A DNA stretch of 64,000 nucleotides from a virus (lineage: Duplodnaviria; Caudoviricetes): positions 4,188-68,187 of IMG/VR virus record IMGVR_UViG_3300005662_000039; one strand, 5' to 3'. This document shows, piece by piece, positions 5,554 through 50,489 of this stretch (positions within the stretch are counted from its first letter, which is position 1; each line of letters begins with the position of its first letter). The notes below the pieces were generated by a model. That model had not been told where the DNA came from and made no database searches. It saw nothing but the letters and a program-made list of their open reading frames with translations. The translations under genes and the position numbers were made by a program.

Positions 5554-5562
5554 CTTAAGTCC

Positions 5563-6570: not shown

Positions 6571-6598
6571 ATTTGCCTCTGATTTATAATATGGTATA

Positions 6599-22912: not shown

Positions 22913-23272
22913 ATGCCTGATCCGCAGTTAAGATATTTAATAGTGGTGCCTGTTTATAAACAGTTGTCAGTTAACGCCGTACTAGAAAAATTAGTAGATA
23001 GAGCAAAATCTTTTTTTCAGTTAGATTGTGCATGTTCGAGATATGGGAATATGCCTCCTTCTCACTTTTATTGTTCTAAATTAACTCAGGAAGCTTTTGA
23101 TGTAGCATCAATTGTTATTGAAGAAAATATGCCTCATTGCTATTGGTGCAGTTTTTTTGATGGTGATTTTGTATGGGATACTAATGTTGCAGAGTGCGCC
23201 AATATGATAGGAGAGAAAGTCTCGGACAGAGAATTTCTAAAGACTATAGGGCTTAAGCCGATAAGAGTATAA
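22913..23272 (+). CDS. hypothetical protein upstream of terminase
   Basis: GGAGG RBS before ATG 22913; stop overlaps the TerL start. Confidence 0.6.
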   Translation: MPDPQLRYLIVVPVYKQLSVNAVLEKLVDRAKSFFQLDCACSRYGNMPPSHFYCSKLTQEAFDVASIVIEENMPHCYWCSFFDGDFVWDTNVAECANMIGEKVSDREFLKTIGLKPIRV

Positions 23273-25104
23273 TGGCAAAAAGAGGAAGACCTCCACTAGT
23301 CAATCCGATCATTAAGCATTTGGGAGACTTGAGAAAAGTCATCCAGACTACATCTATATCATCTGAAATAAATAGAAAAATACCTTCTATAGAGGAATTC
23401 ATAGATAGTGAAGACTACTTGGGTCTTCCCAAGCGCACCCCCCATCCAATCAACCTTTTTCCTATGCAGCGTATAGTACTGAAGGCTTTTTATAGGGGTA
23501 CTGAGGGAAATGAAAATGTTAAATTAACAGAAGAAGAGATTCAACTTTGTCGTGATTTAGAACTTGAAGATGAAGAGAATGGGGATTTTATCAACAAGTA
23601 CGAATCAGACAACCTTTTCACCGAAATGGTTCTGGTTTGGGGCAGGAGATCAGGTAAAGATTTTTGTGTTGCCATTATTGCCCTGTACGAAGCGCTTAAG
23701 TTATTGGAAGCGCCAGGTGGCGATCCTCATGCATTGTATGGATTAGGAGGAGGAGCTCCATTTAATATACTAACAATAGCAAACTCGGCATCTCAAGCGC
23801 AAGTTTTGTTCAATGAGATTAAGGATAAGATACTTCCTTCTAAGTATTTTCAAACAAAAATGGGATCGGATTGCATTACGGCAGACTCAATTCATTTGCT
23901 GACGCCGTCTGATATGAAAAGAAATAAAGACATGGAAGCAAAAGGACTTCCTCAAACGCAAGGTAGCGTCATTATAAAATCTGGTCATAGCAATTCGGAT
24001 TCTCTCGCTGGAATTGGCTGTTATTGTTTATTGTTGGATGAGATTGGCTTATACAAGCAAACTTCTGGATCTTCCGGAGGAGAGGCTATATACAGAACTT
24101 TAACTCCAGCCACTGCAACATATGTAAGAAAAGTAAAAGGTGTTGATAAGAATGGAGAGGAGACAGAAAAGTCTGTTTATGATGGCAAGATCATATGCAT
24201 AAGCAGTCCGCGAGGTAAAGATGGCATATTCTATGATTTGTTTAGCAATTCTCCATCAGTCCCGCATAGGATTACATGCAGACTTCCTACATGGAGCGTT
24301 AATGTCAATCAAAGCCAGGAAGATCTGCGCGCAAAATTTGGGGCTATGTCAGAAGAAGAATTTAATATGGAATTTGGCGCAGAGTTTTCAGGAATGTCTG
24401 GTCAGACGTTTTTTTCCAGAGATGTAGTTGAATCATGTTTTATAAATAATCTAAAATTAAAGGAAAGAGGAGAAATAGGTAGACAATACTATTGTCATCT
24501 TGATCCTGCTACAAGTTCTCATAATTATGCTCTTGTAGTTGTTCATAGAGAAGATTTTATAAATAAAGAAACTGGGAAATCTGATTTTAGAGTGTTGGTA
24601 GACCATGTGAAGGTTTGGACTCCATCAAAAAGTAGACCAATAGTAAATAGAGAGATAGATGACTACATAATAAAACTAAATAATAATTTTATATTATCAC
24701 AAGTCAGTTTTGATCAATGGAATTCTGCACAGAGCATAGAAAATCTAAGGAAGCATGGCATTCCCGCAAAACTGACGAGATTTACTAAAAGGTATAAGAA
24801 TATAATTTACGACAATTTATACGATATAGCAAGTTCAGGTAGACTAAAGATACCTCATGAAGAATTGCTTAAAAATGAAATGTTGTATTTACAGCGAAGA
24901 TTTACCCCAACTGGCTATAGAGTATTTGCCAAAAAAGATGGTCTGGTAAAAACGGACGACTCTGTAGATGCACTTGCTGGAGCCTGCTATGGATGTGTGC
25001 AGGAAAATGTGGATAGGCTACCAAGTGGTAGGCTGGCAAGAATGAATTTATGGTCTTTTGGTCAACAGTCAGGTGTGGCGAATACATTTTTTAATAGACT
25101 ATAA
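23272..25104 (+). CDS. terL: terminase large subunit
   Basis: Walker A WGRRSGKD; Walker B LLLDEIG; motif III ISSPRG; RNase H-like nuclease HLDPA, FDQWNS, DDSVDALAG. Confidence 0.93.
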   Translation: MAKRGRPPLVNPIIKHLGDLRKVIQTTSISSEINRKIPSIEEFIDSEDYLGLPKRTPHPINLFPMQRIVLKAFYRGTEGNENVKLTEEEIQLCRDLELEDEENGDFINKYESDNLFTEMVLVWGRRSGKDFCVAIIALYEALKLLEAPGGDPHALYGLGGGAPFNILTIANSASQAQVLFNEIKDKILPSKYFQTKMGSDCITADSIHLLTPSDMKRNKDMEAKGLPQTQGSVIIKSGHSNSDSLAGIGCYCLLLDEIGLYKQTSGSSGGEAIYRTLTPATATYVRKVKGVDKNGEETEKSVYDGKIICISSPRGKDGIFYDLFSNSPSVPHRITCRLPTWSVNVNQSQEDLRAKFGAMSEEEFNMEFGAEFSGMSGQTFFSRDVVESCFINNLKLKERGEIGRQYYCHLDPATSSHNYALVVVHREDFINKETGKSDFRVLVDHVKVWTPSKSRPIVNREIDDYIIKLNNNFILSQVSFDQWNSAQSIENLRKHGIPAKLTRFTKRYKNIIYDNLYDIASSGRLKIPHEELLKNEMLYLQRRFTPTGYRVFAKKDGLVKTDDSVDALAGACYGCVQENVDRLPSGRLARMNLWSFGQQSGVANTFFNRL

Positions 25105-25138: not shown

Positions 25139-25849
25139 ATGTTCAATTTATCAAAAATAATAAGTCAAATTTTAGGCATAAATAAGAAAGCTTCTTTAGA
25201 ATCTTCTTTAGAAAAAGAGAGGACTAAGCAGGGGCTGCGATCTGGCGAAGAAGTTGGTGAAAAAGCTTTGGAAATAGATCGAGTTGGAGATGATTCTGAT
25301 CTTATTGAATCAAATTTAGATGCCAACAGAAAAACGGAATCAGATGCCAAGGTAACAGAGGCAGCAGTTGATGAGCATTCTGGCTTTACTGCTCGGCAGC
25401 CTGGAAAAACAGATGATTATGGAGATGTGTCTCCTATGGCTGTTGCTTCAGAAGCTTGGGACGCCCGTGCTCGTGAATTGTATAAGAAAGAATTATCTAA
25501 AATAACTAAAGCTGACTCTATTTTAGATAAGTATATCGGAGATAGGCACAATACAGAGACTAAGATAAAGTCTGTGTCTGAAAATTCAAGCGGATTGGCA
25601 AACATATCAGATAGATTTAAGGATTACGGATCTACGCCATTTGAAGATGCTAAGAAAAACATAGATTCAGTATCAAAAGAAACCAAGATAAATAAGATAT
25701 CATCTCAAATAATGGATCTTGATGCAATAAGACTTGCTGTGGAGGTAGAAGCCTTTAAGCGTGGTCATCATACAGAAGAAGACCATAGGGTGCTTGCATC
25801 TGTACGAACAAATAAGAAAACATTGCTACAAGAGCTTTTTAGTGTTTAA
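25139..25849 (+). CDS. head-region protein, MFNLSK...KKAS leader
   Basis: Leader motif plus SLESSL/LIESNL/VTEAAV repeats resembling the TE(G/S)QL repeats of the protease. Confidence 0.7.
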   Translation: MFNLSKIISQILGINKKASLESSLEKERTKQGLRSGEEVGEKALEIDRVGDDSDLIESNLDANRKTESDAKVTEAAVDEHSGFTARQPGKTDDYGDVSPMAVASEAWDARARELYKKELSKITKADSILDKYIGDRHNTETKIKSVSENSSGLANISDRFKDYGSTPFEDAKKNIDSVSKETKINKISSQIMDLDAIRLAVEVEAFKRGHHTEEDHRVLASVRTNKKTLLQELFSV

Positions 25850-26333
25850 TATTAATACAAAAGGATTTACTTTAAAAATAGCTCAAAGAGGTACTGATGT
25901 GCCTAGGGCTTTTGAAAATCCTATAGGAAAAAGAGATCCGTATCAGAATTACGAATTACCCAATGATGGCAAGGGCAGAAAATTAAATATTTTTGGAACA
26001 ATAGGGATGCCTGGAGAGCCTGGTAACGGTTCATCCTCTGCTATTGGTGGAGAAAAATTCAAAAGGGTTAATCCAGACATAGCACATCCATATTCAGAGA
26101 CGGGAGACACATTATCTAAGAGCCAGGATCCAGACCATCCTTTTGATTCTGAAGAAGATGGAAGACCATCAAGAAGTGAGTACGGGGTTGGTGGAGGATT
26201 GAATTTTTACAGCGATGATAGCGCTTTATCTATTAATAGCCGTGTTTTTGGATCTGATAGAGATAAAAATCCCAATGGTCCCCAAGGCGATGTTGGCGGA
26301 AAAGTTCGCTCTTTAGTGCCGAAATCGACTTAA
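25842..26333 (+). CDS. head-region protein, MFNI...LKIAQ leader
   Basis: A GTG start at 25842 overlapping the previous stop gives MFNINTKGFTLKIAQ|RGTD; G/P/D/S-rich disordered body. Confidence 0.65.
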   Translation: MFNINTKGFTLKIAQRGTDVPRAFENPIGKRDPYQNYELPNDGKGRKLNIFGTIGMPGEPGNGSSSAIGGEKFKRVNPDIAHPYSETGDTLSKSQDPDHPFDSEEDGRPSRSEYGVGGGLNFYSDDSALSINSRVFGSDRDKNPNGPQGDVGGKVRSLVPKST

Positions 26334-26343
26334 GGAGTTCATA

Positions 26344-27009
26344 ATGAAGATTAAAGTAACGAACAAGGTTAAAGGGGAAATAGTTATATCCTGCTTGGGT
26401 GGATCTATGCGCAGAGGAGACACCGTGGCTCTTGACCAAACAAAATCCTCTCATCCTGATGTTCTTTGGGCTATTCACCATGGATATCTTGAGATAGTTG
26501 ATAATATAATTGGGCAAGAACCCATGAGCGATGTTGTATGCTTTGTAAATTGCACAAAGAGAACACTTACTGGCAAGATGTTCTCTAAGCCTTTAGATCC
26601 ATCAAGAAGTATTGTCGTTAAGAAAACTGACCTTATATTTAATGAACTTATTAAAATGGTCGATAAGGGCAAATTGAAGATAGACGGTTCAAATAGTGTT
26701 ACTGTTTCTAGTATTCACCCTTCTGGGGTCACAGTAGCTGAACATATTGAAAATTTGGAATTAAAAGAAATTCAATCAAAAAATAAGAATAAGTCAAAAA
26801 AGACTGCCATTAAAAAAGTTGAAAACAACACTGATATATATGCAAATAAGAAGGATGAAAAAGCACAATATAATAAGAAGATTAGCGATAAAAATGATTC
26901 AGGCATTAGGGAAGAAGTAAACATGGACAATGCGATAAAGAAATCTAATGCTTTAGTTATGGGCATTAGAGATCCAATATTTGTTGATATGAACGGCGAG
27001 GTATCATGA
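26344..27009 (+). CDS. protein with two tandem copies of a ~50-aa module and a charged tail
   Basis: Each copy: beta(N)-beta-...-helix-G(Y/K)L(E/K)I; GGAG RBS. Confidence 0.75.
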   Translation: MKIKVTNKVKGEIVISCLGGSMRRGDTVALDQTKSSHPDVLWAIHHGYLEIVDNIIGQEPMSDVVCFVNCTKRTLTGKMFSKPLDPSRSIVVKKTDLIFNELIKMVDKGKLKIDGSNSVTVSSIHPSGVTVAEHIENLELKEIQSKNKNKSKKTAIKKVENNTDIYANKKDEKAQYNKKISDKNDSGIREEVNMDNAIKKSNALVMGIRDPIFVDMNGEVS

Positions 27010-27152
27010 AAATATTTGCATCAAAAAAAGCATTCAACAAAATAAAAAATGTTAAAAAGAAAAACCTGCTTACATTATGTAGGTATTTTTCTCTAATATA
27101 CCCCAAAGAATACGTTGAGGGGGTCGCGGGTGGGCGCTGTCCTTCAAGATAA
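27006..27152 (+). CDS. 48-aa protein missed by the ORF track; paralogous to the C-terminus of 29888..30541
   Basis: Gapless 31-aa alignment FNKIKNVKKKNLLTLCRYFSLIYPKEYVEGV vs FVKIANLTDKQKAAFRSYWQNVWPKEFIDAV; ATGA overlap with the upstream stop. Confidence 0.65.
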   Translation: MKIFASKKAFNKIKNVKKKNLLTLCRYFSLIYPKEYVEGVAGGRCPSR

Positions 27153-27906
27153 TAAAGTCGCAATAAGTAATTTTATAGCACTCGATCTTAAAAGATTGGG
27201 TGTTGATTTTATCGATGGAGTCATTTACTATCGAGGCAAAAATTACAATTCTGTTTCCGAATATGCTGATGAATTAAAAAAAGAAGTAACAAAAAATATT
27301 AGTCAACTCCGTAGCATATGGCAGTCTGTGCCTATTTTTCTGGCGGAAGATAGTGGCATCATCACTTCGGAAGGGTCTAGGTTGCTCTCTCACTGTCTTT
27401 ATAATTTATTAAAAAAAGTCAACTCCTATCATGTATTAAGCGGAATTCATGCTTCAATATCAATAAGATCAGCATTAAATTCAGATACTAAAAGATGGAG
27501 CGATAAGACAGCTGAAGATATATCTTATTTATCCGTAAAAATAGACAATATAGAAAGAGACATACGAAATAAAGCTTTTATAGTATCCTCCATTCACTTT
27601 TTGCACGAGAGTATGAAAAAAGTGGCTCAAAGTTCTGGAGGATCAGTTCAAGGTGCTTATTCCAACCTTGATTTACCAATGGCTGAGAGATGGTATCTAT
27701 GGAGAGATATTGATGATGAAGTAGATGGTAGAAGGGATTCTATTAGATCTCAACGTAGATATCAAATGGGTCTGGAAGACTCGGATCCGCTTGGTGTTAA
27801 GGAGGGTTTCTATTGGAGAGAAATAAGAAACGAACCATATAAGTTCGATGTTTTATATCCAGACTCGCCATATCCATACAGAAGTGCATTGTGGGGTAAT
27901 CCATGA
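27115..27906 (+). CDS. head-region protein with internal KKVAQ
   Basis: 263 aa, TTG start uncertain; KKVAQ|SSGGSVQGAYSNLDLPMAERW. Confidence 0.7.
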   Translation: MRGSRVGAVLQDNKVAISNFIALDLKRLGVDFIDGVIYYRGKNYNSVSEYADELKKEVTKNISQLRSIWQSVPIFLAEDSGIITSEGSRLLSHCLYNLLKKVNSYHVLSGIHASISIRSALNSDTKRWSDKTAEDISYLSVKIDNIERDIRNKAFIVSSIHFLHESMKKVAQSSGGSVQGAYSNLDLPMAERWYLWRDIDDEVDGRRDSIRSQRRYQMGLEDSDPLGVKEGFYWREIRNEPYKFDVLYPDSPYPYRSALWGNP

Positions 27907-28265
27907 ATGATATAAATAAAAAATCATATTCTGTTATTTCTCTAGTGTCCTCGATGGGGAGACCATCTTTTGTCCAAGGCAAAATACTACTGGAAATGTT
28001 TAAGATGGGGAGCGGTTCGTCTCTTGGACTTCCAGCCCATATAGGATCAGCTCAACTTAGTGAACTTCAGCGTAATGGTCTTATAGATATAGATTCAAAA
28101 AATAACATTTACCCAACTAAAATGGGTATGAAAATGCTGGAATCTTTAATATTGGGAGAAGATGATTGCACCTACCCACTAAAGGAGGCTGTTGCTGCTG
28201 ACAAGTTTAAAAAAGGAATTCCTCTTCATATGCTGGCAAAGTCTTCTTCCATCATGAGGCTATGA
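27903..28265 (+). CDS. hypothetical protein (possible winged helix)
   Basis: LSELQRNGLIDI...IYPTKMGMKML resembles a wHTH wing. Confidence 0.6.
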   Translation: MNDINKKSYSVISLVSSMGRPSFVQGKILLEMFKMGSGSSLGLPAHIGSAQLSELQRNGLIDIDSKNNIYPTKMGMKMLESLILGEDDCTYPLKEAVAADKFKKGIPLHMLAKSSSIMRL

Positions 28266-28266
28266 A

Positions 28267-28473
28267 ATGCAAGTAATTGCTTTTTATAAAGATGCCGCCG
28301 ATTATGATTCTTTTATAAAAAAAATTATAAATAAAGATATGCATAGCGACATTATTCATCACAAAAGCCAGAAGAAATTAATAATTGATATAACTATCGG
28401 TTCGGAGGATGATGCCGAGGGTTTTTTTATAGCTGAAAGATTTAGGGGCAGAAAGTTGGTTATAGATGCCTAG
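28267..28473 (+). CDS. hypothetical protein
   Basis: 68-aa ORF coupled to both neighbours. Confidence 0.55.
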   Translation: MQVIAFYKDAADYDSFIKKIINKDMHSDIIHHKSQKKLIIDITIGSEDDAEGFFIAERFRGRKLVIDA

Positions 28474-29227
28474 AGGAATGGCTATCATCAACTGTGAGTT
28501 AGCAGATAATCCCCATGCGCATTCTCGCGGACTGATGTTTCGTGATAGCCTTAAAGAAGGTCATGGCATGCTATTTGATTTTAAAAAGGAACAGAATCTT
28601 TCGTTTTGGGGCATGAACACACTTATACCTTTAGATATAGCATTTATCGATAAAAAAGGCAACATTGTTAATACCGATATTGTAAAACCTCATTGTCTTG
28701 ATTCTGTAAAAAGTTCCTCCCCTTGCATGTTTGCTCTCGAGGTTCCAGCGGGTACATTTAAAACTAATAATATAAAAAATGGTGATTTTGCAGAGATTTA
28801 TAAAGAAAACGGGAATACTGTAGTTTTTCTTCTAAAAAATCATTTAGAGGGAAATATTAAGGTCGCGGCTTTGGACATGGAGCCAGGTGGCAATCTTAAC
28901 GTGGATGCAGAAGAGATTCCAGCCAGAGGTAGTGTAGATAGAAATGTAAAGGATGAAAATGCTCCCTTGTTCGGCAGCGTATTTGATGCTCTTAAATGGT
29001 GTATACATAATCATGAAGTATGTAGAATAACATATCAGACTGATAGTGGTCATGTAATAACTAGAGATATAGAGCCTCATGATATTTTTTATGGTTCTAG
29101 CAAACATCATCAAATATTATCAACTTGGGACGAAAATGCTAATGGACCTAGAAGCTATATTGTCATGAGAATAATTTCTTATGCGATTCCTAGAAGGAAA
29201 TTTACTCCAAAAATACAACTTTATTAA
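28466..29227 (+). CDS. DUF192 domain + WYL-like domain fusion
   Basis: N-term ELADNP...RGLMFR...GMLFDF...FWGMNTLIPLDIAFID...ALEVPAG (DUF192); C-term CRITYQTDSG..ITRDIEPH.I...LSTWD....GPRSY..MRI (WYL pattern). Confidence 0.75.
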   Translation: MPRGMAIINCELADNPHAHSRGLMFRDSLKEGHGMLFDFKKEQNLSFWGMNTLIPLDIAFIDKKGNIVNTDIVKPHCLDSVKSSSPCMFALEVPAGTFKTNNIKNGDFAEIYKENGNTVVFLLKNHLEGNIKVAALDMEPGGNLNVDAEEIPARGSVDRNVKDENAPLFGSVFDALKWCIHNHEVCRITYQTDSGHVITRDIEPHDIFYGSSKHHQILSTWDENANGPRSYIVMRIISYAIPRRKFTPKIQLY

Positions 29228-29229
29228 AT

Positions 29230-29829
29230 ATGGAAAACATTATACGAGAATTACTTATCGCGGCACAGGGTCTTGACAACAGAGGCTTATCTAATGAAGC
29301 AAATGAATTGGACAAGACAGCAGAAACTTTAGTGAAGATAAAAACCGCCCAGTATGACGGCACTCAGGGGTATTTTATAAGAAATACTAGATGCTGGAAT
29401 GGGTGTATAAGGACAAAGAGAGCAGAAGGTAAAAACCCCAACGAGGCGTGGACTGAGTGTCATGAAGAGTGGGTTGATTCTTCGACATCAGGATCTGCTG
29501 ATGCGGTATGGGGAAAATATGCCAATGATGAATCGTTTAACAAGACTGCAGGCATTTATGACAATATCATACTTACTGCTGCTGATGCCGCATTGAAGAA
29601 CATAATTGAAGGCAGAATATCTCAAGGCATGTCTTATGAAGATGCGATTCCTATGAGTTTGGCTGAGCGCAGCATTGCTCTTGCCTCTGAACTTAGTAAA
29701 TGTGCTGAAAAAATAAATATTTTGGCAGAAGGTCTGGATATAGAAGGATCAGCATCTGTACTTAAAGATGTTTCAATTAAATTATCTGAATTGTCTGCAG
29801 AGGAATATGTAAAATCTATTTCATTTTAA
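29230..29829 (+). CDS. head-region protein with LD..G...EA..LD helix and IKTAQ motif
   Basis: AQGLDNRGLSNEANELDKTAETLVKIKTAQ|YDGTQGYFIRNTRCWNGC. Confidence 0.75.
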   Translation: MENIIRELLIAAQGLDNRGLSNEANELDKTAETLVKIKTAQYDGTQGYFIRNTRCWNGCIRTKRAEGKNPNEAWTECHEEWVDSSTSGSADAVWGKYANDESFNKTAGIYDNIILTAADAALKNIIEGRISQGMSYEDAIPMSLAERSIALASELSKCAEKINILAEGLDIEGSASVLKDVSIKLSELSAEEYVKSISF

Positions 29830-29887
29830 CAAGGTTAAATAGTAGAAATTTAGTAAAAATTAAGCTAGTAATAGCAAGGAGCAAAGT

Positions 29888-30541
29888 ATGAGATTCTTTT
29901 CAAACAAGATATATGTGAATGGTGCGTCAAAAAATTTTAATGACATAATAAATGATGTAGCCGGTGGCATGAAGAAGCAGGCAAGCGTCGCTTCGCAGTC
30001 TGCTGAAAAGCCTGTTGTTAAGCAGGCCAAAGAGGCTATAACAGATGCTCAGGAAGGAAAACTTCCTCCAGCTCTGGTTGCAGCCATTAAGAGAAAGGAA
30101 GGCAAGCCAGGAAAGAGCAAGAAGAAGTCATCAATAAATGGCAACGATGTTAAAATAGCCTCCGTAAACCAAATAGACACCGATACTGTTGAAGTGGAAT
30201 TCGTTCCAGAGAACACTAAGGTCGCTGAGATTGAAATATCAGATGATGGTTCAGTTAAGATGGCTGGATGGAATGAGGGAATGGCTGCTACTGAGGATTC
30301 AAATGAGGCTGGCTCTTCAGAGGATAATGCTGAGTCTAAAGAAGTAGCTGATTCTGATTCTGCAGAAAACTCAGATGGCAAGGAGTCATGCGAGGCTTGT
30401 GGCATGTCCACCATGGCTTCTTCTGGAGACTTTGTTAAGATTGCCAATCTAACCGATAAGCAGAAAGCTGCTTTCCGTAGCTATTGGCAGAATGTCTGGC
30501 CAAAAGAGTTCATTGACGCGGTTTTAACCAAGGATCAATAA
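29888..30541 (+). CDS. head-region protein with multiple K-x-A motifs and CxxC
   Basis: KKQAS, VKQAK, VKIAS, KVAE, VKMAG, VKIAN; CEACG; AGGAG RBS. Confidence 0.75.
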   Translation: MRFFSNKIYVNGASKNFNDIINDVAGGMKKQASVASQSAEKPVVKQAKEAITDAQEGKLPPALVAAIKRKEGKPGKSKKKSSINGNDVKIASVNQIDTDTVEVEFVPENTKVAEIEISDDGSVKMAGWNEGMAATEDSNEAGSSEDNAESKEVADSDSAENSDGKESCEACGMSTMASSGDFVKIANLTDKQKAAFRSYWQNVWPKEFIDAVLTKDQ

Positions 30542-31179
30542 TGTCCATAATCCCTGTAGGTCGGCGTTCTGAAATGGTCGGCCAAATATTCAGGTTGGCT
30601 AATGACCAACTTCATCAGCCTGATGCTGATTCTGCCTATATGACCTCGGGTGATTCTCAGTCTCCTTTGCCTTCGGATGCGGTTAAGAACGCAGCCCCTG
30701 TCGTAAAAGATGCGACAGGGGCTGCTGCGGATGCGGCTGGTTTTCACGATCTTGTATATAAAGAACTTGAAAATTTAGGCATTGATCCTCGTATCATTTC
30801 TAGAAAAAGCAATTCTCTTATTAAATTCGAAGAAGACATAGCAAGTGGTAAAATGTCTGGAAGTTTTTTAATACCAGTCGAACTCCCCACTGGCGGTACT
30901 GTTTCTCATGATAAAGCAAAAGAGATCGCTTTAAAAATATTCGATAAGTTTGGACTAAAAGGAAAAATCGGAAGAGACGAGAGACGGAAGTTTCATGTCA
31001 TATCATTTTCCACCAAAGAAGCAGAAGCGTCTAAGCCTACGAATGAAGGGTCTTTTGGAAATCTTCCAGACAATGAAGCAGAAAAAAAGACAAGTACTGC
31101 ATCCGTGCAATCCGAAATGTTCTTAACTAGAAAGTCAATGCTTATTGATGCTTTGAGAAAAGGCGGATACATCAGATGA
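30541..31179 (+). CDS. hypothetical head-region protein
   Basis: 212-aa ORF, translationally coupled. Confidence 0.75.
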   Translation: MSIIPVGRRSEMVGQIFRLANDQLHQPDADSAYMTSGDSQSPLPSDAVKNAAPVVKDATGAAADAAGFHDLVYKELENLGIDPRIISRKSNSLIKFEEDIASGKMSGSFLIPVELPTGGTVSHDKAKEIALKIFDKFGLKGKIGRDERRKFHVISFSTKEAEASKPTNEGSFGNLPDNEAEKKTSTASVQSEMFLTRKSMLIDALRKGGYIR

Positions 31180-31847
31180 TATTTAGCAATAGAGACTCTG
31201 GTAAAAGCAATATTTTTGGTGATGCATTTGATAAATACGATGCATCTTCAGCCGTTCCTAGCGACGATGTACTCGAGTCTATGCGAAGGAAAGCATGGAG
31301 CAGCTCTCCCTCAGGAGGGGAGGCATTGAGGAATACGATTTCCAGATCATCCGCTGCTACAGATGATTCCAGTGCTTCTGGGCGCGCATTCATTGGCATG
31401 AACTCAGCAAGAAGTATATTTTCTGATTCGACAAATAATGAAGGGAAAATCGATGCTAAGTCAGCATCTGATTCTTCAAGACAGTCAGAGAAAAATGCTA
31501 GAAAAGACCTAGAGCGCAAGCGAAGGGCAGAGTCGAATCCATCTGGAGAATTGGAAGCAAAGAATTTTTCTGCACACGCAAGCGAACATAAGCGCATGGA
31601 CGTTACGAAAAACGCAATTAGCATATTTGATAAAAATCCATTTGAAAGAATGGGATCCAATGAGGCAGAGTTGAAGAAGAATATAAAAGTAGCCAACGAA
31701 GACCTGCACGGATCTAGGCAACTGACATCAAAAGATGTTACTGAAAGAATATTTAATGGATTCGGTGCCGAAGTTAAAAAAGCAACACATCATCAGTCCG
31801 TGGTTGATAATTTGATAAATAAGTTGAAAGGTGATAAAAGTGAGTAA
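31176..31847 (+). CDS. hypothetical Ser-rich head-region protein
   Basis: 223-aa ORF, ATGA-coupled. Confidence 0.75.
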   Translation: MIFSNRDSGKSNIFGDAFDKYDASSAVPSDDVLESMRRKAWSSSPSGGEALRNTISRSSAATDDSSASGRAFIGMNSARSIFSDSTNNEGKIDAKSASDSSRQSEKNARKDLERKRRAESNPSGELEAKNFSAHASEHKRMDVTKNAISIFDKNPFERMGSNEAELKKNIKVANEDLHGSRQLTSKDVTERIFNGFGAEVKKATHHQSVVDNLINKLKGDKSE

Positions 31848-32838
31848 TACTTTTAATCTCAAGAAGTTCGCTCAGCAGTCAATTGCTCAAATGCCGAGAC
31901 AGGATGTAGTGGAGTCGCCAGCATCCGCATCTGCAAGCGATTCTCCATTATTAATGGATCAGGGATATGATAGCACAGTTTCTCAGGATTCTAATATAAC
32001 TTTACCTAAATTCCAAAATGGAAGTGAACTTTTCGAGTTTTTGGAGGCTTTTAGAACTCAGCAAGGAGATGCTGCTTCTGCTTATGATGCCGCATGGAAT
32101 GGTTTTTTTGCAAAGAGATTGGCTGGCAGTCCTAATGCTTCTTCTTTTGAAGATGGATTGAGAAGATTTTACGAGCAAAAGGACAATAGTAATGAGGCGA
32201 CAAAAGTCGCAATGGATATTTTTGATATATATTCTTCTATGATAGATCCCAATATTCAGCCCATCATGACAGAGACTAAGTCTGCTTCAGTGCTTATAGA
32301 TGAATTAATAGATTCTACAGATGCAATCATATTAAGCATGGCTAGGTCGATAGTAAAAAATGCTTCTAAATCTAGTTTTAATTTATCAAAATTTGCCCAG
32401 CATAAAACTCTAACTAATTCAGTTGTAATGACTGGTCCAAGCCAGGTGGGAATATCTCCATTTACTAGAGATTTACAGTCAAGCATGCATCTTGTAGAGC
32501 AGAACAAGGGATTTGGTCTGCGGATAGGTGATATATTGGATATAGATTTCGAGTCCATATGGCGTGGTAATATAATGGACAAGTACTATAGATCCACTAG
32601 GGATAAAGATGGCATATATGGTGGTGGCTATATAGACGACAAATTCGAGGTTAATCGATTTATTCCAGTTGGAAATAACTATCAGTTACCTCCAGGTGTA
32701 AGACACAGACCATACATCCCCGAGCACGGATTGACCGAAGCTCGTATAGAAGTTGCCAGAGGCAACAAAGATAAATTGAGTGACCCAAGAAAATTTGCCA
32801 AGATATATAATCACTCTCTATCTAAAAAAAAAGTATAA
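31840..32838 (+). CDS. head-region protein with two FNLxKFAQ motifs
   Basis: (M)SNTFNLKKFAQ|Q and SFNLSKFAQ|H; ends at an A9 run (SKKKV*). Start is GTG 31840 or 31831. Confidence 0.8.
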   Translation: MSNTFNLKKFAQQSIAQMPRQDVVESPASASASDSPLLMDQGYDSTVSQDSNITLPKFQNGSELFEFLEAFRTQQGDAASAYDAAWNGFFAKRLAGSPNASSFEDGLRRFYEQKDNSNEATKVAMDIFDIYSSMIDPNIQPIMTETKSASVLIDELIDSTDAIILSMARSIVKNASKSSFNLSKFAQHKTLTNSVVMTGPSQVGISPFTRDLQSSMHLVEQNKGFGLRIGDILDIDFESIWRGNIMDKYYRSTRDKDGIYGGGYIDDKFEVNRFIPVGNNYQLPPGVRHRPYIPEHGLTEARIEVARGNKDKLSDPRKFAKIYNHSLSKKKV

Positions 32839-33047
32839 CGACAAATAAATTTGCTAATCAAGCGTTATCTCCAGGAGATGCGCTTGATCGTGCATTTTCC
32901 GCACTAGATGGAGCAAAAGACAAGGGGCTTGGAAAGTATCGAATATGCCCTGTCTGCGGAAGTCACTGCAGTGCGGAAGCATCTGTATTCAAGTGTCATA
33001 ATTGCAATGCATCATTAGCAAATGTAATAATTCACTTTAAATCGTAA
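32826..33047 (+). CDS. start-less -1-frame extension encoding a zinc ribbon (frameshift product of the upstream gene)
   Basis: The -1 frame is open from just after TAA 32823-25 to TAA 33045-47: KKSITTNKFANQ...CPVCGSHC...FKCHNCNAS; no ATG/GTG/TTG anywhere in this frame. Confidence 0.6.
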   Translation, partial: KKSITTNKFANQALSPGDALDRAFSALDGAKDKGLGKYRICPVCGSHCSAEASVFKCHNCNASLANVIIHFKS

Positions 33048-33066
33048 TACCGAAATCTAGGTTAGT

Positions 33067-35289
33067 ATGACCAAAAAAAATTCCAATAAAGAAGTCGAAT
33101 CAGGTAGTTCAGATAATTCATTAAGTATGAATAAGCTGGCATCAGGTGGTGCTGTGCATATGCCTATCACCAAGGCTGCTCAGTATGTTGGTGGATCAGC
33201 ATCTACCATATTTACTCAGCCAATGTTCTTTAGTCCCCTGCACACTCCTCAAAATTGGCAGATAGCAAGTAAGCGTCGAGAAGTCGCTCAGTGGGCGAGG
33301 TTTTATTACGAGAACGAGCCAAAAGCTGCTGCTGGAATAGATTTTTATGCTAATTTTCCCATGAACGGATTCAAGCTAGAATGCAAGGATCGTAAGGTTC
33401 TGGCATTTTATGAGCATTTGATAGATAAGTTGGATTTGGAAAACTGGCTTAGAAAAATAAGTCACGAATATTATCTTCTCGGAGACGTATTTGTCTTTAC
33501 CGAGGTGGAATGTCCTGTGTGTGGTGGTACTGGAGAAAGAGTCGATGGGATGATGTGCAATCATCCTGATGGAGTAATTAAGAGGATACTTATATTAAAT
33601 CCTGACTTTGTTGAAGTCCAAAGAACTCAGTTAGCAGATGAGCCTGCAGTTGTGCTTCTTCCAGATGATGATCTGAAGAGAGTGGTGTCGCAAAAGAAGC
33701 CTCTTGAAGTTTATAATAGAATACCAGAAAATGTTAAGCGAATGGTGATGGCTGGAGCTCCAATTCCTCTCTCTCCCAGATGTGTAAGTCATATAAAGCG
33801 CAAAGGTTCTCCATACGGTACTTATGGAGAATCATTGTTGAGAAGATTATTCACCATAATATCTTATAAAACAAAATTAATGACAGCGAATTGGATAGCA
33901 GCTGAAAGGCATATACTTCCAGTCAGGGTAGTAAAAGTTGGTACTGAAAATCGTCCAGCCAGTGAGGCAGATATTGCTGATGCACAATCCCAATTGGCAT
34001 CAGTTGCAAATGATCCGAATCTCACTATTGTTACTCATCATGCATTTGAGATGGACTTTGTTGGAGCAACGGGCAAGATTCATGATATGAGTACTCAAAT
34101 GGAGGCAATAGGCAAGGAGATGCTTGATGGTCTCATGTTGCCTCAGACATTGCTTAACGGCGAAATGGCAGGATATAGTTCAGCGGCTGTGGGCGTGGAA
34201 ACTTTGATAAGAAGGTTGGAGACATGGAGGATAGAGCTAGCATCTTGGGTTGAGAAGAATATATTTTTACCAGTTGCTCAAATGCAGGGCTTTGTTGACG
34301 TATCAAAGTCTAAACTTGTTGGTGAAACGGTTTATTTGTATCCAAGATTAAAATGGAACGACCTTAATCTTCGTGATAATACATCTAAATTGCAAAATCT
34401 AATGCAACTTCATGATAAGGGTCTTATTTCAACGCAAAAATTGCTTGAGGAATTTAATATCGATTATGATACTGAAATCAATAGGCTAAGAGAGGAACAG
34501 ATTACCGCTGGTAAGGGTGGTAATATAATGGGTGGCTCTGGTTCTGGAGGAGGTTCTTCTGCTGGCACTGAGATGCCAATGCCAACTGGTGGCAGTGGCC
34601 CTCCATTGGATATGGGAAGTCCCTTGCCTCCACCAGATATGGGAGCTCCAAGTGGTGGCGCTATGCCATCAATGGACTCTAGCGTATCTGCTCCGTCATT
34701 GACAGGAGAAGCTGCGCCTATGCCTGCTGCAGAAGGGGGAGCGCTTCAATCATCAGCAGCAGTAATGCCTGATAAAATATATAAAAAAGGCAAGGCTCCA
34801 AAGATTGAAAAAAAAGAGGAGCATAAGCCAGAGCCTCCTAAACAAATTTATTTAACTAAGCCAGAACAAAAACTATATTCTATTCTATCTAGAATGAGAG
34901 TTCCATATAGGCTTTTTGCTCAGTTTAAACAAGCAACTCCATATTCTACAAGTCCATACTTGCTTGACTTTGCCTATCCAGAAATCGGTGTTGACTTGGA
35001 GGCTGATGGTGACTTCTGGCATTCTGACCCAGAATCTATATATAGGGACAAAAATCGTGATGCTAATTTAGCCACAATGGGATGGCGTGTAATACGAATT
35101 AAAGAGTCAGCTCTTAATGGTGCGGTCGATGAGGTTGAGAAGATTATATCTGCTAACATTCGTGAAGCAGCATTGGAGAAAAAGCAACTTAGCAAAAAGG
35201 CTTCTATTCATAATTTCAGTATGATAGATAGTGAATTTTGCACTATCTACCTTCCTTCTGGAGAAATAGATGATAAAGATCGCAGCTAA
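33067..35289 (+). CDS. portal protein with C-terminal DUF559/Vsr-like nuclease domain
   Basis: Position between TerL and protease; FYYENEPKAAAGIDFYANFP, EYYLLGDVF, PYGTYGESLL, LTIVTHH, LKWNDLNL portal-type motifs; P/G/M/S linker; then KPEQKLY...LDFAYPEIGVDLEADGDFWH...DKNRDANLATMGWRVIRI. Confidence 0.85.
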   Translation: MTKKNSNKEVESGSSDNSLSMNKLASGGAVHMPITKAAQYVGGSASTIFTQPMFFSPLHTPQNWQIASKRREVAQWARFYYENEPKAAAGIDFYANFPMNGFKLECKDRKVLAFYEHLIDKLDLENWLRKISHEYYLLGDVFVFTEVECPVCGGTGERVDGMMCNHPDGVIKRILILNPDFVEVQRTQLADEPAVVLLPDDDLKRVVSQKKPLEVYNRIPENVKRMVMAGAPIPLSPRCVSHIKRKGSPYGTYGESLLRRLFTIISYKTKLMTANWIAAERHILPVRVVKVGTENRPASEADIADAQSQLASVANDPNLTIVTHHAFEMDFVGATGKIHDMSTQMEAIGKEMLDGLMLPQTLLNGEMAGYSSAAVGVETLIRRLETWRIELASWVEKNIFLPVAQMQGFVDVSKSKLVGETVYLYPRLKWNDLNLRDNTSKLQNLMQLHDKGLISTQKLLEEFNIDYDTEINRLREEQITAGKGGNIMGGSGSGGGSSAGTEMPMPTGGSGPPLDMGSPLPPPDMGAPSGGAMPSMDSSVSAPSLTGEAAPMPAAEGGALQSSAAVMPDKIYKKGKAPKIEKKEEHKPEPPKQIYLTKPEQKLYSILSRMRVPYRLFAQFKQATPYSTSPYLLDFAYPEIGVDLEADGDFWHSDPESIYRDKNRDANLATMGWRVIRIKESALNGAVDEVEKIISANIREAALEKKQLSKKASIHNFSMIDSEFCTIYLPSGEIDDKDRS

Positions 35290-35683
35290 GAGAATAAAAG
35301 ACCGCAACATTTCCTGGAAAGAAGAATATACGGAAAGAACTAAACCTCTAAAGGAGAGATATGAGGATCAGATCGGTATTGGTTCTTACTACAGATGGGC
35401 TGGTCATGATTATACTACGAATAGCGATTACTACGTTGTTTGCTCTCCCGCAAAAACAAAAGAACTAGACAATGCATTTTTTGCTGGCATAAAAAAACTA
35501 CCTCCAATATATAAAAGAGATGTAACAAAGGTTTATTCTCCATATGGAAGGTATTTTAACAATATAGCTAGTGCATTAACCTTCCTGAATGATAAGTACA
35601 ACATACCATACCCAAAAGAACAGATTAATTATACCGATGAAAATCTCCAAGGAATTAAAATACCTCGTTTTATAAAGGCTTAA
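35270..35683 (+). CDS. conserved hypothetical protein between portal and protease
   Basis: 137 aa, MIKIAAK start; overlaps the portal stop. Confidence 0.7.
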   Translation: MIKIAAKRIKDRNISWKEEYTERTKPLKERYEDQIGIGSYYRWAGHDYTTNSDYYVVCSPAKTKELDNAFFAGIKKLPPIYKRDVTKVYSPYGRYFNNIASALTFLNDKYNIPYPKEQINYTDENLQGIKIPRFIKA

Positions 35684-35684
35684 C

Positions 35685-38600
35685 ATGGAAGATACTATTG
35701 AAGAAAATGGTTTGGGTAAGAAGAGTTTCCGTTTTACATCTGATAGAGATGTATGTGCTCTTAATCTGCCCAATAATTGGCAAGAGATAAACACAGATAT
35801 TCTAACTAAAAATGCTTCTATTAAAGAAAACGGATCAATCTTCAATAAAAACGGTAAAGTAGTAGATTTGGGAGGCTTTGATCTTGATAAAGCCATTGAC
35901 GAAAATTCAGAGTGCCTATTCGTTAAGGTTTTTGCTATTAAGAAAGATGAAGTTAACGACAATGGTGATTTCTTCAACGAAAGTGAACTTAAGAAAGCTA
36001 CTAGCACATTCATTGGCGTTCCAGTTTTCGTTAATCATCAAAATGATGATATAGAAAAAGCCAGAGGCAAGGTTGTTCACGCATGGTATGATGATGAAAG
36101 AGGTGGCATATACACCATAAACATGGTCGATAAGGTTGCTTTCCCTCGTCTTGCTCGTGGGCTTGAGGCAGGCTATGTTACTGGCAGTTCGATGGGATGT
36201 TCTGTGAAGTATTCCTGCTGCAGTATATGTCATACCAGAGCTGCCACAGCTAAAGAATTTTGTAGCCACATTAAGGAAAGAAAAAAGAGACTCTTTAATG
36301 GGGAATGCGAATGCAAGTATCATGATCGTCCTAATGCTGGAGATGAGCCATGCCCATTATGTGACAAGAAAAAGGGCGAGAAAAAAGCCAATGTCTATAA
36401 AGACAAGCAAATATTTGAGCACAACTATGGGGTTAAATTTATAGAAGACAGTTTTGTAGTCAATCCTGCTTGTCATGATTGTCTCGTGTCCGACATACTT
36501 AATCCAAGTGAATTGCAGAAGAAAGTTGCTAATGTCACAGATATTATTAAGAAATACGCATCATCCATTGAGGGGCAAGAGCATAATGATGGATGCAGTG
36601 ATGGTTCTTGCTCTTTAAGAAAAGTTGCTGGGGTCAAGGAGATTGGAGATTTAAATGAGGCTATGAATAAAATGGAGAGAGTTGTTCGCTCTATGATGGC
36701 TCAAAAATCAAAAGTATCTTTGGAGTATGTTTCAGATATTATAAAAGTTTGCGCAGATGTTCAGAAAATAGCAGATGAATTAGTGGAAATGGGATATGCA
36801 AGACTTCCATCGCCTAGTGACGACCAGGTTGCTTTTGGAGTGGCGGAGCATGCCTCTCCCATTAATCCTCAAGGGTCTCCTGTGCAGACATCCACCCCTG
36901 CTATGCCATCTCCATCTGCTGCCATCCCTGCGAGTACTAAGCCTATCCAAACTGCAGTAGCTAAGCCTGGATCATTCTCGGCACAGACTACTGAGTACGG
37001 TGATGATATAGGTAGAGTGACAAAACCTTCTTTTATGCCAAGAAAATCAGAAAATATGGAGGATTTTGTTAAAATAAGTCATATGATACGCGATAGGATT
37101 GCTAATTTAGAAGAAAAATTAGCGGAGGGTATTGATTTGGGACTAAGTTCTGATTACAGGGCGACAGATGGCGATATCTCCATTGTTATCACTGCTGATG
37201 ATGATGGGGATATGTTTGTATCTGCGTTTAATGGCACAAGAATGACTAAATGGGCAAGCGTCGATACGCTTACTCAAGAATTACGGCAGTTGGTAATAAA
37301 CGACCCCACGGAGGCCGCCAGAAGGTTGTTAATTGCAGGTTACGGCGGCACCAACCGGAGCGAAGATACTATGAATAGCAATGAAAATAATGATAATCTG
37401 AAGATCGCTAAGAGAAAAGATGCACCAGATGTAACTACTCAGGCTCAGCTTGATGGATCTGGTCTTTTATATGGAGCACGCAAGGGCGATGCTCCAGACA
37501 AGACCACTCAATCCCAACTTGATGGGCACATAAAGAAGGACGAATCTAGTGCTTCTCCAGTAGAACGTCATCCATCTCCCACTGATACTGTGGAGTCTCA
37601 GTTGAATGGCAAGGGCGGATTCATGGTTCGTTGGAGCAACACTCCAGAAGCCATCACTGAAGGACAGTGGACTGCTGCTAACAGGGAAGTATATGCCAAG
37701 TTGCCTTCGGATTGGTCTGAAGGCGCAAAAGAATCTCAACTTGAAGCCCTTCGAAAGTCTCACAAGTGGGTTGATCCATCGGAAACCACAGAGGGGCAAC
37801 TTGCCAAGAATGCCTCATCTTCTGCAGTTGATTTGATCAAAGCTGCATCAGATGGCATATCAACGGCTATAGGCTTCTATGGTCTAACTGCTGATCAGGT
37901 TAAGAAAGCATTCGCTGTTGCTGGTAAGAACATGGAGAAGACTGCTTTCAGCGTTCTTTACAACGCTGCTCCATGGCTGGTTGAGGACAGGATTAAGAAT
38001 GTTTCTTTGAAGCGTTTCCTTTCCAAGGAAGCAAGTTCTGCTGATCTCGGTATAGAGCCAATGGACGCTCTCGTTGCTGGCTTGGCTGATCATGTTGGCA
38101 ATCTTCCTGTTGATCAGGTAATAAAAGCAGCATCTTGGATATCTAAAGAGCAAGTTGCCTTCCAGACTGCTATCGACAACGCTGAAAAATTCGCCTCAGT
38201 AGAGGAGGATGCCAGCGTAGATGAGGATGATATTTTCCGTAAGGCCTTTCGCGAGTCTAACTTTCCAGAAGATGGACTTTTCAAGATATGCGCGACGATA
38301 GAAGATGACATTAACGTAGATCCTTCCGCTGGTGATGCATTTGTGCGTGCTGTTCATAAGTTTGCATCTGCTCAGGTTTCTGAGGCTTTCGGAGTCTCAG
38401 AACTTGCTCCTATGTCAATAGATATAGACGATTCCAACGGTATCGTGGAAGCAACTTTGAAGATTGCATCCATGCTTGATGCGGAGGAATTAAAGCATTA
38501 CAACGAATGGCTTTCTTCCGCTGAAAAGTCAGAAAAGAATGCCTCCTCCTCTTTGGAAGACAGGAGAAGCAAGCGCGCTTCTGTCCTTAATAAAATTGAC

Positions 38601-41871: not shown

Positions 41872-42759
41872 ATGTCAATAGATAAAAATGGTCTTACCTA
41901 TGATGAGAAGGAAATGGTCATTGCCCAGGCGCTCGCCACCGAAGAGGGTCGCACCGCGCTTGCTCAGGCAATGGTTGAGCCAATTCGCCGGTCACTTGAG
42001 TATCAGGCGGTTGGTCGTAAGCTTCTGATGGTTGATGAGCTTCCCCAGGGCGCTCTTCCCCGTTACGAGCGTGACGTTGCCTCCGTGGCCACCGTTGTTG
42101 CTCGTCAGGGCGCAGTGCCTGATCAGATCGTTGAGGGCGAGGAGATCCTTGTCCCAACCTTCGAAATCGCTGCTCACCCAACCATCCGTCTTTCTGAGAT
42201 CAAGGCTCGTCGATTCTATATCGTCGACCGTGCTCAGATCAAGGCTAAGGAAGCAATCCAGAAGGAAGAGGATCGCAACATATTCAATGCTCTCATCGCT
42301 GCAGCTGATGCGCGTGATGCTAGTGGTCTCGGCAGCCAGATTGTAGATAACCAGGGAACCCTGGAGACTGCTTCTCTGAACACTGCTTACCGCTTCATCG
42401 AGCAGCACGACCTTGTTGCCTCTAAGGTTGTTTGCCACCCCAATCAGTACGCTTCATTCCGTACTTTTGGTAAGTCTTTCTACGATGAGGCTACCACTCG
42501 TGAGATTCTGACCACTGGTCTTTACGGTCACCTCTGGACTGCTGACATTCACGTCAGTTCCCAGCTTGACACTCAGACCATATTGGTTACTGCTTCTCCA
42601 GACACTGTTGGAGCTTTCCCAATCCGTCAGGATATCACTGTTCTTCCAGCAGACGATCCAAAGAAGCTTCGTCTTGGCTGGGTCATTTTCGAGGAAGTCG
42701 GCGTTGTTGTAATGAACGACTACGCTGTAGCCAAGATCGAAGTCAGCGTTGCATCCTAA
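41872..42759 (+). CDS. major capsid protein (HK97 fold)
   Basis: LAQAMVEPIRRSLEYQAVGRKLLMVDELPQG...EILVPTFEIAAHP...AIQKEED...DIHVSS...GWVIFEEVG; strong codon bias; AAGGA RBS; followed by a terminator. Confidence 0.9.
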   Translation: MSIDKNGLTYDEKEMVIAQALATEEGRTALAQAMVEPIRRSLEYQAVGRKLLMVDELPQGALPRYERDVASVATVVARQGAVPDQIVEGEEILVPTFEIAAHPTIRLSEIKARRFYIVDRAQIKAKEAIQKEEDRNIFNALIAAADARDASGLGSQIVDNQGTLETASLNTAYRFIEQHDLVASKVVCHPNQYASFRTFGKSFYDEATTREILTTGLYGHLWTADIHVSSQLDTQTILVTASPDTVGAFPIRQDITVLPADDPKKLRLGWVIFEEVGVVVMNDYAVAKIEVSVAS

Positions 42760-42796: not shown

Positions 42797-42828
42797 GGCT
42801 TCATGCCGAAAGGCATGGAGCCTTTTTT
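42797..42828 (+). terminator. intrinsic terminator after MCP
   Basis: GGCTTCATGCC-GAAA-GGCATGGAGCC-TTTTTT. Confidence 0.9.
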
Positions 42829-42901
42829 ATTTTATTGTTATATCATAAAAACTACTTTTCAAAAAGGTGTTATTCCAACTTGCTCGTATATAATATCTCA
42901 T

Positions 42902-50087: not shown

Positions 50088-50489
50088 TTGTTTTCAGACT
50101 ATGGGGAATTCCTTCGTCTGACCAGGCCTCTTCCGCTTGATTATAAGGAGAAGATAATTGATGCATTATCTTCAGAGGAAAAACGCAGTCTGCGTAAGGA
50201 TTTTATAGTTGGTGGTTGGGACAACGTAGTTTATCGAAATGAGATAGATAGTAGCAGCGAGAGAATAAAAAAAGTTTTCAACAAAGATCCTCTGCGAGTA
50301 CGGGCCTTGGTTTTGAAGGGGAATATGATAAAAGTGCCATATGCGTTTTGGCATACTTTTGTAGAAGATATCAAGCATATACCTAAAAAATATCTCACTC
50401 CATTTGTGGGCGGAATAGAAGTTCAAGAGGATCCTGATGATCCTGAGTATGTTGTTTTAAAAAGAAAGGGAAACTATGAGCAAGAGTAG
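50088..50489 (+). CDS. hypothetical protein
   Basis: 133 aa, TTG start with AAGG upstream. Confidence 0.65.
   Translation: MFSDYGEFLRLTRPLPLDYKEKIIDALSSEEKRSLRKDFIVGGWDNVVYRNEIDSSSERIKKVFNKDPLRVRALVLKGNMIKVPYAFWHTFVEDIKHIPKKYLTPFVGGIEVQEDPDDPEYVVLKRKGNYEQE

Follow-up and report, generated by a model that had tools for sequence, protein, structure and literature searches.

The head module of the viral DNA

We analysed a 64-kb window (the whole stretch of DNA studied here) lying within one 68,187-bp IMG/VR virus record, for which CheckV gives a completeness of 15%. The subject is a short motif, Lys-x-Ala followed by Ser or Gln (K-x-A-S/Q), in the proteins of its head module. A sequence-only reading of this DNA had taken short N-terminal leaders ending in this motif, often begun by FN(L/I), for a shared zip code plus cleavage site, which would load a large and diverse set of proteins with unrelated bodies into the head. 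The major capsid protein shares 49% identity with gp27 of Bacillus/Lysinibacillus phage G, and there are related contigs as long as 461-548 kb with completeness ratings of 98-100%; the window is therefore a fragment of a megaphage of the phage G clade. Its head module is arranged in the order terminase, small genes, portal, protease-scaffold, decoration-like protein and capsid protein. Searches of Pfam and PHROGs returned nothing useful for the small head proteins. The features are listed below, with an arrow at the bond that would be cut.

23272-25104: large terminase, at the start of the head module
25139-32838: eleven small genes between the terminase and the portal
25139-25849, plus strand: head-module protein of 236 amino acids (aa), with an 18-residue leader MFNLSK...KKA↓S at 25139-25192
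25842-26333, plus strand: protein of 163 aa with a GTG start and a 14-residue leader ending in KIA↓Q
27619-27630, plus strand: internal K-V-A-Q, residues 169-172 of the 263-aa protein encoded at 27115-27906
29230-29829, plus strand: Cys-containing protein of 199 aa, with a conserved helical leader of 40 residues whose end is KTA↓QY(D/V)G
29888-30541, plus strand: protein of 217 aa, with a 32-residue leader MRFFSNKIYVNG...GMKKQA↓S and, downstream of it, low-complexity sequence that varies
30541-31179, plus strand: protein of 212 aa, with a conserved 16-residue N-terminal leader MSIIPVGRR.EM..Q; the R-L-A↓N after the leader is not conserved
31176-31847, plus strand: Ser-rich protein of 223 aa, with a conserved N-terminus MIFxN(K/R)D and KSA↓S at residues 95-98
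31840-32838, plus strand: two-part protein of 332 aa, with MSNTFNLKKFA↓Q, KSA↓S, KNA↓S and, before a conserved C-terminal domain, FNLSKFA↓Q (32377-32400)
33067-35289, plus strand: fusion of the portal with a DUF559 endonuclease; NKLA↓S at 33133-33144, TKAA↓Q at 33172-33183 and C-terminal KKA↓S at 35194-35205
35270-35683, plus strand: conserved protein of 137 aa, starting with MIKIA↓A, then KRIKDRN
35685-41192, plus strand: polyprotein of 1835 aa, with a protease at residues ~45-292; the remainder is scaffold-like and has 19 K-x-A-S/Q sites
between the 1835-aa gene and the capsid gene: protein of 194 aa, occupying the position of the phage G decoration gene
41872-42759, plus strand: major capsid protein, with zero K-x-A-S/Q sites

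Proteins and their families are named below by the first position of the gene, except that the homologues of the protein at 31840-32838, for which a GTG start at 31840 is likely, are called the 31831 family.

The Lys-x-Ala motif and the protease-scaffold polyprotein

To avoid presupposing a motif, every gapped tripeptide (a residue, any residue, then two residues) was scored against composition. K-x-A-S ranked top in the head module, with 26 occurrences observed versus 3.5 expected (z = 12). K-x-A-S/Q occurred 32 times in the 5,059 aa of the head module versus 14 times in the 16,374 aa of the other open reading frames (ORFs), giving an odds ratio of 7.4 (p = 5e-11), and the reversed motif and ten permuted or neighbouring motifs were counted 2-7 times in the same head proteins, i.e. 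at background. The longer FN(L/I)xK was found five times versus 0.39 expected, a count equalled by 1 of 2000 shuffles, and four of these five copies were followed by K-x-A-Q/S within 15 residues. Chance or composition as the cause of the enrichment was ruled out by the unbiased scan, the shuffles and the permuted-motif controls. Outside the giant polyprotein, 7 of the 14 sites in head proteins lay within the first 45 residues (binomial p = 0.005). Leu, Ile or Met occupied P5, two residues before the Lys, in 17 of 33 sites. We also noticed a split in the residue after Ala, with 6 Gln and 4 Ser at leader or maturation sites and 1 Gln and 17 Ser at scaffold sites (Fisher p = 0.003, for a grouping chosen after the data had been seen). 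In the head module of phage G, K-x-A-S was again the top motif (12 versus 2.35 expected). In G002, a complete relative of 498,568 bp, 29 of the 97 sites fell within the 20 kb holding the head module, and for this reason the motif cannot be called equally common in replication and metabolic genes.

Nine of the strings quoted in the sequence-only reading were present where it had placed them, namely MFNLSKIISQILGINKKA↓S at 25139, FNINTKGFTLKIA↓Q at 25842 (from the GTG start), VKIKTA↓Q (residues 36-41 of the 29230 protein), KKQA↓S (residues 29-33 of the 29888 protein), FNLKKFA↓Q and FNLSKFA↓Q (residues 5-12 and 180-187 in the numbering that begins at the probable GTG codon at 31840), NKLA↓S and TKAA↓Q (portal residues 22-26 and 35-39) and FNLSKYIKYA↓Q at 51216. 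Others did not fit its description: KKVAQ, given as a leader of the protein at 27115-27906, is internal (residues 169-173 of 263) and the part upstream of it aligns with orthologues; MIKIAA at 35270 is K-x-A-A; and 'MRIAQ' at 3197 is R-x-A-Q, at residue 16 of its ORF. The view that the bodies of these proteins are unrelated was borne out by all-against-all BLAST clustering, which put them in separate families.

In 12 IMG/VR relatives the portals were 78-91% identical and the small proteins 28-55%, and the leaders and sites were nonetheless kept; alignments of more distant families comprised 44-95 members each, taken from 80 more distant loci. All orthologues in the 25139 family keep MFN(L/I)xK...KxA(S/A), with insertions and deletions between the two halves and bodies that are 28-54% identical. 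Close relatives of the 25842 protein have F(N/K)...(K/R)xA↓Q, and because more distant members have only MKKxA↓R, the site is weak or variable in this family, where it is not enriched overall. In the 29230 family, (I/V)KxAQYxG is kept across the clade. The 29888 family has a leader of ~30 residues ending in GMxKxA(S/A), after which the low-complexity sequence cannot be aligned, and the site lies within the first 50 residues in 36 of 44 homologues. For both the 29888 and the 31831 families, the leader and the K and A columns were the best conserved of the first 110 residues. In the portal family, K(L/Y/F)A(S/N/A) and P(I/L)TKAAQY were found in relatives and P(I/L)TK(A/N/C)A↓Q in distant relatives. 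The 16-residue leader of the 30541 family is conserved and there is no conserved canonical site; this leader is family-specific. Among 48 distinct N-termini compared for the 35270 family, distant relatives have a leader (F/Y)NLxKxAG before KRIKDRG, of which MIKIAA of the window looks like a truncated form.

The 31831 family carries FN(L/I/F)xK(F/Y/H/L)(A/S)Q at its extreme N-terminus and, in addition, an internal FNLxKxA↓QHK that is near-invariant in 33 homologues (N181, K184, A186, Q187) and lies exactly at the junction between a variable half of ~185 residues and the conserved C-terminal domain. In the AlphaFold2 (AF2) model of the 31840 protein, three of the four sites fell in segments between helices, with a predicted local distance difference test score (pLDDT) below 50. 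By analogy with SPN3US head proteins (PMC10052503), such a layout is what one would expect of a long propeptide that ends at a maturation site.

Ratios of observed to expected sites were highest for the 31831 family (9.6), followed by 29230 (6.6), the scaffold-protease (6.5), 25139 (6.2), 29888 (5.7), 27115 (4.6), the portal (4.3) and 31176 (3.9); the 35270 family (1.3) was not enriched. The shell proteins lack the motif: no K-x-A-S/Q was found in 57 homologues of the capsid protein, versus 7.2 expected, and one was found in the decoration-like family, versus 2.7 expected. In the large terminase family there were 0 sites versus 2.7 expected.

Within the 1835-aa protein, residues 1-340 were matched by PHROG families of head-maturation proteases (phrog_18299, E = 3.6e-11). 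Since a profile of the protease domain gave only noise against the sequences of solved structures, a fold search was needed. The AF2 model of the domain (mean pLDDT 75, core at least 90) had T4 gp21 as its best solved match (5jbl; Z 10.3, root-mean-square deviation 3.0 Å, 145 of 164 residues), and the next Foldseek matches were all herpesvirus proteases. His118 was invariant (21/21), as was Ser169 wherever its column was occupied (18/18), and of the 94 homologues with both motifs, 91 had a His-Ser spacing of 51 residues. Judging from this model, residues ~45-292 are most probably a prohead serine protease of the gp21/assemblin type, with His118 and Ser169 as putative catalytic residues. In the unbiased scan no x-E motif stood out, so that the rule of all characterised phage members, a cut after Glu at (L/I/S/A/G)-x-E, would not hold here; K-x-A-S/Q versus x-E is a difference of specificity, not of fold.

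When the scaffold part was aligned with those of four relatives of ~50% identity, 13 of the 19 site columns were kept in all five sequences; the middle residue was free, and Ser and Gln interchanged at the same site. If every site were cut after Ala, the products would be an N-terminal piece of 44 residues, a protease of 248 and scaffold fragments mostly of 11-232 residues, with one of 407. In the AF2 model, the first of these sites falls in a disordered region. When a library clustered at 50% identity was searched exhaustively with HMMER, 2445 sequences homologous to the protease domain were obtained with E-values no higher than 0.001. The 87 homologues that reach 1400 aa, which likewise come from the clustered library, contained K-x-A-S/Q 849 times versus 150 expected, and permuted motifs 73-241 times; the enrichment was 4.0-fold for Lys and 2.2-fold for Arg at P3, 4.8-fold for Ala at P1, and 3.0-fold for Ser and 2.0-fold for Gln at P1'. 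The same 87 proteins contain a second recurrent scaffold motif, E-x-Q-L (319 versus 36 expected), and the scaffold part of the window has, at 37434-37800 (plus strand), four copies of a T-(T/V)-(Q/E)-x-Q-L-(D/N/A)-(G/K) repeat.

We consider it fairly probable that the phage's own prohead protease, of the gp21/assemblin type, recognises and cleaves K-x-A-(S/Q). The enrichment of the motif, its conservation, its link with the protease family, its absence from shell proteins and the fold of the protease are established here; that cleavage takes place, at which bond and by which enzyme, and that the small proteins reside in the head, are inferences. The cleavage-site half of the sequence-only reading is well supported, albeit indirectly, in that the motif tracks the protease-scaffold fusion across the clade, keeps its position, falls in predicted linkers and is not found in shell proteins; the half that concerns a shared zip code stands only in part and is weighed below. 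In the mechanism that we infer, the polyprotein, the portal and the small proteins encoded between terminase and portal would co-assemble inside the procapsid. The protease would then cut K(P3)-x(P2)-A(P1)↓S/Q(P1'), most likely after Ala, a choice made because of the P3-x-P1 layout of the protease clan and the Ala↓Ser rule of the herpesvirus assemblins. It could release itself as a fragment of ~248 residues, chop the scaffold into small pieces able to leave the capsid, and strip the portal, as well as four to six of the small head proteins, of N-terminal propeptides 11-44 residues long. F/Y-N-L-x-K-x-A↓Q may be an extended, high-information site for those 'maturation' cuts, at N-terminal and internal positions alike, by which a retained domain acquires its N-terminus, and this extended form may also help the precursor to dock in the assembling core. 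It is a speculation that the exposed N-terminal Gln could cyclise to pyroglutamate.

Several points speak against this mechanism. The position of the cut bond, after or before Ala, is suggested by analogy; a gene for a subtilase-type protease is present in the same structural region and is conserved in environmental relatives; the leaders of 30541, 31176 and 35270 and of the distant 25842 orthologues have no canonical site; very short M-K-K-x-A starts could possibly be ordinary Lys-rich N-termini; and the family-level counts given above are not phylogenetically independent.

The portal (33067-35289) itself has a Gly/Ser/Pro linker that joins it to the DUF559/Vsr-like endonuclease domain. In the portals of relatives, K-x-A-S/Q is present both in the linker (at about residues 561-567) and after the nuclease domain (at about residue 721), and the copy of the window has only the C-terminal site (residue 710). 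Because sites flank the nuclease domain in relatives, the portal-fused nuclease might be released inside the head.

Targeting tags, other explanations and neighbouring genes

The discussion of the leaders as tags, and of another enzyme as the one that cuts, involves two further genes of the window.

51216-53585, plus strand: 789-aa orphan beyond the head module, with a leader MENKFNLSKYIKYA↓Q at 51216-51257
47189-47974, plus strand: protease gene of the subtilase type (S8; Pfam PF00082, E = 1.4e-13)

The leader FNLxK...KxA and its counterparts in other lineages could be a transferable capsid-targeting sequence, necessary and sufficient for loading and then clipped, an idea that we regard as tenable though doubtful. 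The same FNLxKxA leader stands on four to five unrelated families: 25139, 31831, 51216, 35270 (in distant relatives) and partly 25842. The 51216 protein carries it, although orthologues were missing from five related genomes; for this protein Pfam and PHROGs gave no match and the ESM Atlas no usable one; its gene is lineage-specific and adjoins that of a PhoH-like ATPase (50476-51207). The FNL copies of the five leaders use different codons, and therefore selection acts on the peptide; a DNA-level repeat as the origin of these leaders was rejected for the same reason. The leader of the 29888 family is also better conserved than the body. On the other hand, the best-conserved copy of FNLxKxAQ is internal, and most leaders of the head module (29888, 30541, 31176 and 29230) are each confined to one family. 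Little information is contained in a leader no longer than MKKxA. In G002 there was no genome-wide excess of N-terminal K-x-A-S/Q (13 ORFs versus 11-12 in control windows). The 'large, diverse cargo' of the sequence-only reading was not recovered either, as 51216 is the sole protein in the 68 kb with such a leader outside the head module, and the 94-164-kb contigs of the nearest relatives add, besides head-module orthologues, only one candidate, a YNISKTAQ N-terminus in G005. Since the Leu of FNL corresponds to the general P5 preference, FNLxKxA would be an extended form of the general site.

Other lineages of the clade provide analogues. In phage G (NC_023719), ~30 ORFs from 25 unrelated families, spread genome-wide, start with MKRLxKK(A/S), i.e. 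with hydrophobic-x-K-x-A at the very N-terminus (for example those at 16055, 28218, 73330, 207449, 255160, 258975, 388147 and 482110), and KRL occurs in the first 15 residues 24 times versus 2 expected (p = 3e-18). For particles of this phage, 104 proteins have been reported (PMC12484599), which counts in favour of the targeting reading. One paralogous family of 8 members in phage G has an HGTS motif after the MKRLxKK(A/S) tag. In G002, seven mutually unrelated proteins start with MNWY(K/R), for example those at 11455, 34068, 271565, 303261 (minus strand) and 338689 (minus strand); three of the seven starts end in K-x-A-Q, and 7 of the 10 NWY tripeptides in ORFs are N-terminal. These two sets, MKRLxKK on 25 families and MNWYK on 7 proteins, are clearer shared tags than FNL, and given such analogues a tag function is plausible. 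Tentatively, we propose that lineage-specific N-terminal tags of the phage G clade (FNLxKxA, MKRLxKKA, MNWYK..KxA) end in Lys-x-Ala, may suffice for loading into the head and may be clipped after Ala by the assemblin-like protease, often with exposure of Gln; the odds, in our view, are rather against it.

Instead of the gp21-type protease, the S8 subtilase of the phage (47189-47974) could cut the sites. Its gene, located within the structural region, is shared by the four complete environmental relatives and is near the head module in G002; however, it is absent from phage G, where K-x-A-S nevertheless tops the head module, the site-rich scaffold forms one protein with the gp21-type protease in 87 or more homologues, and a P3-x-P1 rule with free P2 is typical of the gp21/assemblin clan (PMC10052503, PMC4498786). 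We therefore regard the subtilase as an improbable enzyme for these sites, and its gene as a possible candidate for a second maturation protease.

It is still less likely that the motif is no cleavage site at all, being a binding or structural element (a contact with the capsid interior or with DNA) or a by-product of helices rich in Lys, Ala and Ser. The proteins involved are indeed rich in K, A, S and E, but composition-matched and permuted controls stayed at background, the motif is directional, its sites are found in linkers and not within helices (in two models), and they sit exactly at the junctions between propeptide and mature domain and are absent from shell proteins.

The least likely explanation, in which FNL leaders mimic the extension of ribosomal protein L27 and are removed by a host enzyme, the cysteine protease Prp, as happens in Staphylococcus phage 80alpha, has in its favour the resemblance of KFNLSKFA↓Q to the end of the 80alpha scaffold leader, KFNLQFF'A, and to the L27 motif (D/N)LQ(F/L)F'A(S/H) (PMC9405229), as well as the Firmicute host of phage G, yet it can hardly be correct, as Prp needs Phe before Ala, a position that is free both in conserved FNLxKxAQ sites, with T, I, V, S, Q, E and F all occurring, and in the generic sites, and as generic K-x-A-S sites are entirely without the NLQ-F core. 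A phage-encoded Prp was rejected, there being no match to PF04327 in the window, in the four complete relatives or in phage G. With respect to the host, matches in genome collections were small contigs in bins of inconsistent taxonomy, including two candidate-phyla bins; a Prp supplied by the host is conceivable.

Several neighbouring genes deserve mention. The coding potential that the sequence-only reading had remarked on in the gap before the portal (32838-33067) is conserved, because relatives carry there a small zinc-ribbon ORF (CPxC...CxxC) of 53-140 aa (L004:9774-9995, L006:9774-9995, L011:982-1143 and L031:4960-5382). Directly 3' of the capsid gene, 42803-44548 (plus strand) encodes a 581-aa homing-endonuclease-like protein with a GNAT acetyltransferase domain (phrog_3339, E = 1e-84). 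At 54308-55366 (plus strand) there is an actin-fold ATPase (Pfam Volactin PF25216, E = 5e-58), which is 56-70% identical in G002 and G005-G007 and is therefore a conserved late gene of the clade. On the minus strand, 4275-6675 encodes Gly/Ala-rich proteins with a common (M)KIKIS..W..AGI start; orthologues of the one at 4813-5553 in G005 and G007 likewise begin with MIKISDRQW.EAGIK, and the protein at 4275-4823 also has MNKHA↓Q at residue 27.

Comparison with known systems

Proteolytic head maturation and capsid-targeting leaders are textbook knowledge for T4 and the phiKZ group, in which, to our knowledge, the cut is always made after Glu. In the literature that we searched, no description of a Lys-x-Ala prohead code or of the leaders presented here was found. 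In SPN3US, phiKZ and T4, N-terminal propeptides of 20-254 residues are removed at a short motif of which the first and third residues are defined and the middle one is free; T4 gp21 cuts L/I-x-E and SPN3US gp245 cuts A-x-E (PMC10052503). The herpesvirus protein pUL26 has an N-terminal protease fused to a scaffold and is cut after Ala (YLQA-T, VQA-S; PMC4498786). The leaders of the window end in K-x-A plus Ser or Gln, and this motif also recurs throughout the scaffold that is fused to the protease. A clade that is very large and for the most part uncultured, with 2445 protease homologues, genomes of 460-550 kb and phage G as cultured member, appears to use another, herpesvirus-like rule of Lys-x-Ala plus Ser/Gln.

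If this is true, mature N-termini could be predicted from sequence, scaffold and propeptide regions could be told apart from retained domains by sequence, and a shortlist of virion-internal, possibly injected proteins could be drawn up for megaphages, where annotation is scarce. If, in addition, the leaders act as tags, they would provide a genome-wide predictor of injected proteins and a portable packaging handle for very large capsids.

T4 shares with the window the protease fold, a three-residue site with a free middle residue and the degradation of a scaffold or core at many sites, and the capsid-targeting sequence of T4 (~10 residues, on IPI-III and Alt) is likewise a short N-terminal leader on unrelated proteins that ends in the protease motif. 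Unlike in T4, the predicted site is Lys-x-Ala plus Ser/Gln instead of hydrophobic-x-Glu, a scaffold of ~1500 residues forms one polypeptide with the protease, the capsid protein is without site or propeptide, and the extended form, a putative tag, also occurs internally. The phages with phiKZ gp175, 201phi2-1 and SPN3US gp245 (S/A/G-x-E, A-x-E) also have giant capsids, and their portal and internal or ejection proteins lose propeptides with multiple motifs (PMC10052503); these propeptides match the 31831 family, with its variable, putative propeptide of ~185 residues and three to four sites. The window differs from the phiKZ group in that there is no Glu at P1 and that its capsid protein, of the phage G type and ~290 aa long, has no site and is predicted to remain uncut.

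With 80alpha and Prp the likeness consists of short N-terminal leaders on head proteins and of the literal resemblance between KFNLQFF'A and KFNLSKFA↓Q (PMC9405229). However, 80alpha depends on a host cysteine protease that requires Phe and has a single site per protein, whereas the window has numerous sites, internal ones included, with no fixed residue before Ala, and no Prp gene (PF04327) was found in it, in the four complete relatives or in phage G. In the herpesvirus assemblin/pUL26 system, the N-terminal protease is likewise in frame with the scaffold and belongs to the same fold class, and the herpesvirus enzyme releases itself and cuts after Ala, before Ser or Thr (PMC4498786). The differences are that P3 is Lys here and not Val, Leu or Ile, that there are ~19 sites and not 2, that the identity is only 15-20%, and that Gln is frequent at P1' of maturation sites. 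With such a site rule, the evolutionary link between the protease-scaffold fusions of phages and herpesviruses would be tightened.

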